DNA of 10,427 nucleotides from a virus. A program made the position numbers and the translations under genes. The stretch lies in UHGV virus genome UHGV-1714787. One strand, given 5' to 3'. This document shows, piece by piece, positions 6,726 to 8,684 of this stretch. Within the stretch, counting starts at the first letter, position 1, and each line of letters begins with the position of its first letter. The notes beneath the pieces were generated by a model. It did not search any database and was not told where the DNA came from. It saw nothing but the letters and a program-made list of their open reading frames with translations.

Positions 6726-7745
6726 TTACGCCGTACATTTCACCAGACCGCGGTGATCAACTGGCGCGACACCGGCGTCAATACGCACTTTCGTTGTCAC
6801 GCCATCCACACTGAAGCCCTCCATCTGATCAATATATGGCGTATCCACACCGTTGAGATAAGCCACTTCAATCGTATCGGAGCCTTTTGACGCAGCCAGG
6901 TAGAAGGTGGTCTGGCTGTTATCATCAAGACGAGGCTCTGCAATAACGGTCGCAAAATCTTTCACCGGGTTAATAATACCGGCGTTAATGTCAGCCCCCT
7001 TGACACTTGAGGAGCGAATGACCTGGTTAGCAACAGACTCCATCGCCGTCGGTACCAGTACGAACGCAGGACGAATATTCAGATGACGCTCCCCCTCTTT
7101 CTGAACACGCATCAACTGGCGGGCTTTATCCAGCGATGCCACGTCCATTGCAGCGCCCTCCAGTACGTTTGCATGTTTCGCTTTATCGAACAGACTTACA
7201 TTATCTGTGGAGATTTTCGGGTTAGACGTCAGAATGGCATAAACCAGATCGGCAATAGTGGATTTCGCCGCACGGCCCAGCTTCATCGGGACATCGGTCA
7301 GCATATTCAGATCATCATTGATAATGGCCTGACGGGTGATACTGAACAGCTCGCCATAGGTCGCCAGTGCAATAGTGGCCTGTTTATCTCCGGTGGTGAC
7401 GTATTTATATTCCGCCCCTTCACGCACCTGACGCAGAGCACTGAAGCCCCCCATACCCACGCGATGGGCAATTTTAAAATCAGACAACTGACCTTTCCGC
7501 GTCCACTGTTCATAGGTTTCAGGGGCATCCTCCCAGCCCTGCAGAATGGCTTTGTTCGCAACATCCAGCAGAATATTACCGAAGTCAGACGTACTGTGTG
7601 TGAACGCCGCACCGACCATCTGCATCGGGTTATAACCGGAAACCCCAATACCCCGTTCAGTCAGTGACATACGGGCATATTCACGCAGGGTCATCCCGTT
7701 GTAGACATTATCACGTTCGGTTTTTTCAAATCCGGCACGCGCCAT
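6726..7745 (-). CDS. Major capsid protein (not lambda gpE-like; probably HK97-fold)
   Basis: 339-aa ORF directly downstream of the prohead protease/scaffold and upstream of the decoration-like and head-tail joining genes, so the call rests on position and size. No convincing similarity to lambda gpE as I recall it. Its ATG (7745..7743) is in the same reading frame as the protease ORF, separated only by TAG-GCG-CTG. Confidence 0.75.
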   Translation of the reverse strand: MARAGFEKTERDNVYNGMTLREYARMSLTERGIGVSGYNPMQMVGAAFTHSTSDFGNILLDVANKAILQGWEDAPETYEQWTRKGQLSDFKIAHRVGMGGFSALRQVREGAEYKYVTTGDKQATIALATYGELFSITRQAIINDDLNMLTDVPMKLGRAAKSTIADLVYAILTSNPKISTDNVSLFDKAKHANVLEGAAMDVASLDKARQLMRVQKEGERHLNIRPAFVLVPTAMESVANQVIRSSSVKGADINAGIINPVKDFATVIAEPRLDDNSQTTFYLAASKGSDTIEVAYLNGVDTPYIDQMEGFSVDGVTTKVRIDAGVAPVDHRGLVKCTA

Positions 7746-7751
7746 CAGCGC

Positions 7752-8684
7752 CTAGCGGATCCCGTCCCCCACAAAATTACCGTTACCGGCATAAATATGA
7801 GCCGGGGTATTTTTATTGGATGGCGTGGACTCGCGCCCCATCTCGTTCAACAGCTTTTCGCGGGCCTGCTCCAGCGAACATTCAGGATCGGCAAGACACT
7901 GAGCCTGCAGCGTCTGATAACGCCCGCCAAACATGGCAAACAGATCATTAATACCGTTTACACGCGCTTTTTGCTCTGCCAGTACCTGCGCACGGATACT
8001 GTTTTCATCCACCACGGGTGCTGCTGCCTGCACTGGCGTCCGGGAGGCTGCAGGTTCATTATCCTGTACGCGTGGAGCACTGTTGCGTGGCGGAGTAATC
8101 ATGTTTCGAATGGATTCCGGCATCTTTGTAAATTCCTCTGTACGTTTTGACTGAATACATGCCATTGCCTTAACGGCTGGCGTCACCTGATCAGCAAATC
8201 CATGTGCCAGACATTCGGCACCGGACATCCAGGTCTCATCCGCCAGCATGGCAGCAATTTCATCGGTGGTTTTCCCGGTTTTCTGTGCATAAGCGGGTAA
8301 CAGAACCGCCTCAACCTTATCGAGCAGGTCGGCATAGGTGCGCATGTCCTCCGCATCACCGCCCGTAAAGCCAAATGGTTTATGAATCATCATGAAGGTG
8401 TTTTCCGGCATAATGACCGGGTTTCCCACCATCGCAATGATCGACGCCATTGACGCCGCCACACCGTCGACATAAACGGTAATGGACGCACCATGTGTTT
8501 TCAGCGCATTAAAAATGGCGATGCCTTCAAAGACATCGCCACCCGGTGAATTGATATGGAGATTAATGTGGGTGATATCGCCCAGTGCATTCAGATCACT
8601 GATAAACTGCTTCGCTGTAACACCCCAGAAACCAATCTCGTCATAAATATAAATATCCGCGTCACTCTGGTGACCAGCCTGCAT
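7752..8684 (-). CDS. Prohead maturation protease, ClpP (S14) family, with C-terminal scaffold-like extension
   Basis: ClpP-like motifs are present: INSPGGDV, a likely catalytic Ser in GVAASMAS and His in MIHKP, close to the canonical ClpP ...INSPGG..., ...AASMG... and ...IHQP... motifs. The C-terminal ~120 aa are Ala/Gln/Pro-rich and non-protease-like, consistent with a scaffold domain. Start chosen at ATG 8684..8682 (MQAGHQSDADIYIYDEIG), 13 nt after the portal stop; the track N-terminal extension to 8945 would overlap the portal gene by ~250 nt and is rejected. Confidence 0.85.
   Translation of the reverse strand: MQAGHQSDADIYIYDEIGFWGVTAKQFISDLNALGDITHINLHINSPGGDVFEGIAIFNALKTHGASITVYVDGVAASMASIIAMVGNPVIMPENTFMMIHKPFGFTGGDAEDMRTYADLLDKVEAVLLPAYAQKTGKTTDEIAAMLADETWMSGAECLAHGFADQVTPAVKAMACIQSKRTEEFTKMPESIRNMITPPRNSAPRVQDNEPAASRTPVQAAAPVVDENSIRAQVLAEQKARVNGINDLFAMFGGRYQTLQAQCLADPECSLEQAREKLLNEMGRESTPSNKNTPAHIYAGNGNFVGDGIR

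Follow-up and report, generated by a model that had tools for sequence, protein, structure and literature searches.

A recurrent amber codon at a Dcm site interrupts a Gifsy-2-type protease-scaffold-capsid fusion gene in a probably defective prophage

Introduction

In phage lambda, the prohead protease and the scaffold are encoded by the nested genes C and Nu3, and the capsid protein is the product of a separate gene, E. HK97 has a separate protease (gp4) as well, and its scaffold is present as a delta-domain fused to the capsid protein (gp5). In prophage Gifsy-2, all three functions reside in a single composite gene (STM1033 region, NC_010393 22471..24561, 696 amino acids [aa]) in the order protease, central scaffold-like region and capsid domain. 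Autoproteolysis of such Gifsy-2-type fusion proteins is expected to remove protease and scaffold, leaving the mature capsid protein, which would form T=7 heads. We take this gene to be the 'tripartite capsid gene' of Effantin et al. (2010, Virology 402:355). The latter paper appears in the reference lists of PMC3121763 and PMC12315714, and no cleavage coordinates for Gifsy-2 capsid maturation are given in those papers citing it that were examined. Here, we analyse a stretch of 10,427 nucleotides (nt) from virus genome UHGV-1714787, referred to as the window, in which a gene of the Gifsy-2 type is interrupted by a single in-frame amber codon.

Most Escherichia coli strains carry dcm, and CTAGG, the unrepaired product of cytosine deamination at a methylated CCAGG site, is a classic amber hotspot. 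Hotspots at 5-methylcytosines were reportedly described as amber mutations by Coulondre et al. in 1978, with lacI and lambda cI as the classic cases, and the literature on amber hotspots in these two genes is said to include a study by Lieb from 1991, which is listed among the references of PMC2715241. Deamination of C5meCWGG generates the T:G mismatch CTWGG/CCWGG, which is a substrate of Vsr repair (PMC2715241). In the following, we argue that the amber codon in the window is very probably a spontaneous CAG>TAG mutation (Gln334>stop) at a Dcm site of a normally continuous fusion gene and that it marks an inactivated, decaying prophage.

Results and discussion

On the minus strand of the window, the junction under study reads ...GGG ATC CGC TAG GCG CTG ATG GCG..., with the TAG at 7754..7752 and the ATG at 7745..7743, exactly as described in the original prediction. 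The open reading frame (ORF) ending at 7752 and the downstream ORF at 6726..7745 (339 aa) share one frame, and only the stop codon and two sense codons lie between them. When base 7754 is reverted to C, a single ORF of 675 aa results, which matches the NCBIfam model NF045540 ('ClpP-like prohead protease/major capsid protein fusion protein') along its entire length, with 985 bits compared to a cut-off of 475. The two halves present in the window cover profile positions 2–310 and 314–651 of 652, that is, they align to adjoining stretches of a single family profile, and the arrangement of the two ORFs is therefore not a product of chance. Pfam searches with the restored protein identified CLP_protease at residues 31–191 and Phage_capsid_4 at residues 375–672, which places the amber codon late in the central scaffold-like segment, ~41 residues ahead of the capsid domain model; the latter begins 42 residues into the 339-aa ORF. 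A sequence search of the PDB returned ClpP proteases only and no solved homologue for the capsid part.

The composite gene of Gifsy-2 is a described counterpart. The intact allele of the window gene is colinear with it and 70% identical over 669 residues, and protease, scaffold-like region and capsid domain follow one another in the same way in both. Thus, the statement in the original prediction that some lambdoid prophages of the Gifsy-2 type encode these three parts in one polypeptide was right. The neighbourhood agrees as well. In a near-identical prophage and in metagenome contigs, the head module comprises the gene for the large terminase subunit, a 213-nt gene, the portal gene and the fusion gene, followed by a decoration-type gene (Phage_cement_2/DUF2190), a gene of the PF13856 'Gifsy-2' family and the tail genes, and the window gene occupies the corresponding position of this lambdoid module. 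Likewise, the Gifsy-2 gene is preceded by the portal gene and followed by Phage_cement_2/DUF2190 and PF13856 'Gifsy-2' genes. The difference lies in codon 334, which specifies Ala in Gifsy-2 and Gln in the E. coli relatives, whereas it is amber in the window. The window copy, homologous over its whole length to the family profile but with its frame interrupted, thus reads as a pseudogene of the NF045540 family rather than as an intact member.

The upstream ORF had been assigned to start at ATG 8684. However, GTG 8753 seems the better start for the fusion gene, as it is preceded at a distance of 5 nt by the Shine-Dalgarno (SD) sequence AAGGAGG, for which pairing with the anti-SD was calculated at -11.6 kcal/mol, as compared to almost no pairing (-2.7 kcal/mol) at ATG 8684. 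The annotations are divided, with GTG 8753 being used by PGAP and the ATG by the records of phages mEp460, cdtI and phi458. Initiation at GTG 8753 implies an overlap of 56 nt with the portal gene. Codons are numbered here from this GTG, which makes the amber codon (7752..7754, minus strand; ancestrally CAG, Gln) number 334 of 675. The pseudogene as a whole then spans 6726..8753 on the minus strand. The part in front of the amber codon (7752..8753, minus strand) encodes a remnant of 333 aa comprising the ClpP-like protease (residues 31–191) and most of the scaffold-like region, and the mechanically called 'capsid ORF' (6726..7745, minus strand) starts at the internal Met337 and has no SD of its own.

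Comparison with homologues shows what the undisturbed gene looks like. In mEp460, cdtI and phi458, which are plaque-forming relatives, the gene is 98.9–99.3% identical at the nucleotide level and is annotated as one coding sequence (CDS; 1,959/2,028 nt) that runs across the site, with CAG at the homologous codon. The copies in E. coli RefSeq genomes are single CDSs too and carry the name of the fusion protein. More distant homologues conform to this picture: the gene of an Stx2d phage (78% DNA identity) is one CDS, and 80 phage records, including Pseudomonas phage F10 with 56% identity, each yield one tblastn alignment that covers 80% or more of the fusion. A full-length gene is present in ~1,970 of 5,426 complete E. 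coli genomes. Within this set, a 41-nt probe with CAG at codon 334 matched 1,695 places in 1,578 genomes, whereas the same probe with TAG matched 10 genomes, i.e. strain Z247 and nine O55:H7 strains. That is, TAG is found in 10 of about 1,705 copies and CAG in ~99.4%. Unlike the intact genes of the phages and of most RefSeq prophages, the window allele matches these rare copies of Z247 and the O55:H7 lineage, which are pseudogenes according to PGAP on account of an 'internal stop'. The homologue alignment proposed in the original prediction thus returned a sense codon, CAG, in the close relatives, and identifies the fused gene as the ancestral state.

These data also bear on the idea that protease/scaffold and capsid genes are naturally separate and merely coupled very tightly in translation. 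Gene callers applied to metagenome contigs indeed split the region into products of 333 and 339 aa, as this idea would predict. However, all close and distant homologues examined consist of one ORF in which the site is occupied by a sense codon (CAG in the E. coli phages, Ala in Gifsy-2), and the curated NF045540 model spans the junction. Moreover, the ATG at 7745 lacks a strong SD, as had been noted originally; the best anti-SD pairing amounts to -6.0 kcal/mol and is located ~16 nt or more upstream, and neither a promoter at the junction nor an SD sequence within range of this ATG was found. The notion of two natural genes is refuted by these observations and retains a negligible probability. 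The broken gene does superficially resemble the lambda layout with its nested C/Nu3 and separate E, but unlike in lambda and HK97, its capsid part has neither a ribosome-binding site nor an independent start, and the lambda-like appearance results from the chance position of the nonsense mutation.

The change that produced the stop codon can be specified to the base. Alignment of window positions 1..10373 with the prophage of E. coli 20220828076 (NZ_CP151161), in which the gene is intact, revealed one difference, namely base 7754, corresponding to C>T on the coding strand. The ancestral codons CGC CAG GCG include the Dcm site CCAGG, and the altered base is its inner C. Comparison of the ancestral sequence CCGCCAGGC with the window sequence CCGCTAGGC accordingly displays the C>T transition that gives CTWGG, at the inner C of CCWGG, the target base of Dcm; the mutated site, now CTAGG, occupies 7751..7755 on the minus strand. 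The window thus shares with the classic Dcm amber hotspots the substitution at the inner C of CCAGG, the in-frame conversion of CAG to TAG and, as detailed below, independent recurrence. It differs in that those hotspots were seen in laboratory reporters, whereas we deal with natural prophage populations.

We therefore propose the following chain of events, in which methylation and deamination are the probable chemical cause. Dcm would methylate the inner cytosine of CCAGG, and hydrolytic deamination would turn the 5-methylcytosine into thymine. If the resulting T:G mismatch escaped Vsr very-short-patch repair, CTAGG would become fixed with an amber codon in frame. Translation from GTG 8753 is then expected to halt after 333 residues, yielding the protease and most of the scaffold-like segment, and the capsid domain would be absent except for background readthrough or inefficient reinitiation at Met337. 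Even in the latter case, the capsid domain would be cut off from the scaffold and protease to which it is normally linked in cis. Production of capsid protein and infectivity are thus presumably lost. Without the capsid domain, the prophage would be unable to build heads and is most likely defective.

A second lesion in the same head module fits a decaying element. The terminal 54 bases of the window (10374..10427) have no match in related prophages and represent the end of an insertion sequence (IS) of the IS66 family (ISCro1-like), whose inverted-repeat end begins GTAAGCGG. The insertion truncates the 213-nt gene between those for the large terminase subunit and the portal after its 15th codon, leaving a 3' remnant at 10206..10373 on the minus strand; the interrupted gene occupies the position of lambda W. 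The IS66 insertion in this small gene shows that the prophage is decaying. Neither this insertion nor the Dcm context of base 7754 had been pointed out in the original prediction. All other genes of the window are identical to their intact counterparts in NZ_CP151161, which indicates that both the amber mutation and the IS66 insertion are recent. Of the possibilities offered in the original prediction, a nonsense mutation in a decaying prophage is therefore the one supported by the data, i.e. by CAG in the homologues, by the single-base change and by this second lesion.

As base 7754 alone distinguishes 10.4 kb of the window from the nearest complete genome, one may ask whether the true base is C and the T an artefact of sequencing or assembly, particularly as methylated motifs trouble some long-read basecallers. 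Several observations contradict this view. The 339-aa downstream product was called on eight contigs of public assemblies. One of them, a MEGAHIT contig of a human-gut metagenome in ENA (L012; ERZ914728/ERR589787), matches the window at 100% identity across 9,702 nt, with the end junction included, and contains a DDE_Tnp_IS66_C fragment at the IS end. A contig of JGI assembly 3300029121 (L013; 99.9% identity) has the same IS66 junction in common with it, and TAG together with this junction also occurs in a Logan assembly. A related TAG334 allele, differing from that of the window at 5 nt, was detected in the Logan assembly of run ERR5037338 (L011, 4993..7020). The latter prophage lacks the IS66 insertion and is only 98.8% identical to the window over 9.6 kb; its allele goes back either to the mutation seen in the window, with subsequent recombination, or to a further, independent origin, which would be the fourth. 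Furthermore, 10 finished RefSeq genomes that stem from different projects share the substitution. The identical allele in independent assemblies and the TAG in finished genomes make a one-off sequencing error very unlikely. The window ends 54 nt within a repeat, as would be typical of short-read contigs; indeed, since it is identical to the human-gut contig and both are broken inside the IS, the window is probably itself a contig from a short-read metagenome or draft assembly. Overall, we consider an erroneous base extremely improbable.

If deamination at Dcm sites is the source of the amber codon, nonsense alleles of the gene should accumulate at such sites in other genomes. The gene offers 172 possible single-base nonsense changes, among them 40 transitions, four of which fall on Dcm-methylated cytosines (codons 21, 175, 334 and 577). 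Probes of 41 nt centred on each of the changes were joined to one query and run against the 5,426 genomes with a seed of 28 bases, so that any match must include the mutant base. As the probes cover single-base substitutions on the background of the window haplotype only, the resulting counts are lower bounds. Each clone was counted as one event, and the window itself was left out of the event count.

In total, 24 mutant genomes were matched, and 20 of them had the mutation at the Dcm CAG codons 334 and 577. CAG>TAG at codon 334 accounted for 10 genomes (Z247 and nine O55:H7 strains), and CAG>TAG at codon 577 for another 10 (LR-25 and nine O121 strains). The remaining alleles, all outside Dcm sites, were each found in one genome: CAG>TAG at codon 256 (PM7) and codon 643 (L37), TAC>TAG at codon 451 (23AR0885) and GAG>TAG at codon 645 (MMC-J-0020). 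The stops at codons 256, 334, 577 and 645 were verified in the genome sequences, and those at 451 and 643 are based on exact 41/41 probe matches. In terms of independent events, codons 334 and 577 contributed four out of eight. Among transitions, four of six independent events hit Dcm sites, which make up four of the 40 candidate sites (binomial p = 0.0013). This corresponds to ~2 events per Dcm CAG codon as compared to ~0.07 per non-Dcm CAG codon.

The recurrence at codon 334 is evident from the haplotypes. The TAG334 alleles of the window, Z247 and O55:H7 strain CB9615 differ mutually at 17–19 of 2,028 nt and diverge already at markers no more than 35 nt from the site (gene positions 969, 990 and 1034), and each of them resembles a CAG allele more closely than it does the other TAG alleles. 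Spread of a single ancestral TAG by descent was considered and rejected on these grounds. Since the three alleles belong to different haplotypes, the amber mutation at codon 334 must have arisen at least three times. Codon 577 (AAC CAG GTC; window position 7025, minus strand), which harbours a second in-frame CCAGG Dcm site and is intact in the window, behaves alike: its amber alleles in LR-25 and O121 differ at 23 nt. Both codons were thus mutated at least twice on different haplotypes. As codon 577 belongs to the central part of the capsid domain, its similar behaviour favours mutation bias and disfavours a function tied to the domain boundary.

As a side observation, all eight independent nonsense events create TAG and none TAA or TGA, although TAG results from only 80 of the 172 possible changes and from 31 of the 40 transitions. 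The Dcm sites explain four of these events; for the other four, the probability of such an outcome by chance is about 0.05–0.1.

A different reading grants the amber codon a role. In this scenario, which we regard as highly improbable, the stop is used for recoding or gene fission, that is, the protease-scaffold part is released separately as in lambda C/Nu3, the ratio of the products is set thereby, and the phage remains viable. Capsid protein would then have to come from low-level readthrough of UAG or from ribosomes that terminate and start again at the ATG 6 nt further on. The most far-reaching variant of this scenario, a viable fission in one step with the 333-aa protease-scaffold acting in trans, the capsid protein made by reinitiation at Met337 and heads still being formed, is equally hard to credit. 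The position of the stop near the scaffold/capsid boundary, the in-frame ATG two codons beyond it and the maintenance of the allele in nine genomes of the O55:H7 lineage are what one would expect on these premises. However, all isolated phages and nearly all prophage copies carry CAG, the TAG alleles represent rare tips on different haplotypes, and an amber codon recurs with equal frequency at codon 577, where a function of this kind is impossible. Moreover, the IS insertion has hit another head gene of the same prophage. If fission were nevertheless true, the window would hold a living transitional form, with the fully fused gene of Gifsy-2 on one side and the split genes of lambda (C/Nu3 plus E) on the other, and a Dcm hotspot placed exactly at the domain boundary would help it to recur.

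The signals at the junction do not speak for a programmed event either. Folding of 136 nt around the stop codon detected no significant RNA structure as compared to shuffled sequences (z = -0.79), hence no stimulatory element, and there is no SD for reinitiation. The base following UAG is G, which favours termination rather than readthrough in E. coli. The suggestion that readthrough of the TAG sets the ratio of fusion to free capsid protein is thus not supported: the stop is confined to tip lineages and, with CAG in E. coli and Ala in Gifsy-2, is not conserved among functional homologues, and the mutational hotspot accounts for its recurrence.

Recurrence could in principle also reflect selection, and this weighs against the explanation by mutation bias that we prefer. 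Specifically, knockout of the capsid gene might be advantageous to the host as a form of domestication, stopping lytic killing or particle release while the other prophage genes are kept. The mutation recurs in at least three backgrounds, and the amber alleles at codons 334 and 577 persist in the O55:H7 and O121 clones, respectively, as would be expected under selection. Yet, loss of the capsid leaves induction and lysis possible, nonsense mutations selected in the host should spread over all 172 sites instead of concentrating on two Dcm CAG codons, and clonal persistence is expected for a neutral lesion anyway. We therefore judge positive selection an improbable cause of the pattern. Further points count against a spontaneous amber mutation in a decaying prophage: the independent events are few (eight, as lower bounds on the window haplotype), the presence of dcm and of methylation in the source strain is taken from what generally holds for E. 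coli, and the absence of capsid protein is something that we infer rather than a direct demonstration. In addition, some termination-reinitiation is conceivable, given that only 6 nt separate the stop codon from the next ATG.

With respect to annotation, a spontaneous amber mutation means that the two ORFs belong under a single pseudogene entry, with the Gifsy-2-type fused capsid gene as the intact form, and that the prophage is to be scored as defective. Gene family and mutational mechanism are both known, and RefSeq already lists copies with this substitution as pseudogenes. More generally, in-frame CAG codons at Dcm sites represent predictable weak spots at which genes of E. coli prophages are knocked out repeatedly; in the 5,426 genomes, most nonsense alleles of the capsid gene are found at just two such codons. 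The lost codon specified Gln, the residue that a supE suppressor inserts, so that a suppressor of this type would restore the exact wild-type protein, a point relevant to the induction of such prophages in laboratory K-12 strains.

Two further features of the window were observed outside the fusion gene. An intrinsic terminator hairpin (GGCCC-GTAA-GGGCT followed by T7; 6689..6702, minus strand) is located 24 nt past the stop codon of the capsid ORF, in the middle of the late operon, and mEp460 has a rho-independent terminator annotated at the same place. Farther downstream, a gene for a gpG-like tail chaperone (3859..4245, minus strand) ends with ...CCG GAA AAG TCC TGA (window about 3850..3885). 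The end of the G-like gene is the usual place of the programmed -1 frameshift in lambdoid G/GT pairs. Here, the -1 frame is open into the T-like gene at 3521..3850, and the heptamer is GGAAAAG rather than the canonical GGGAAAG.

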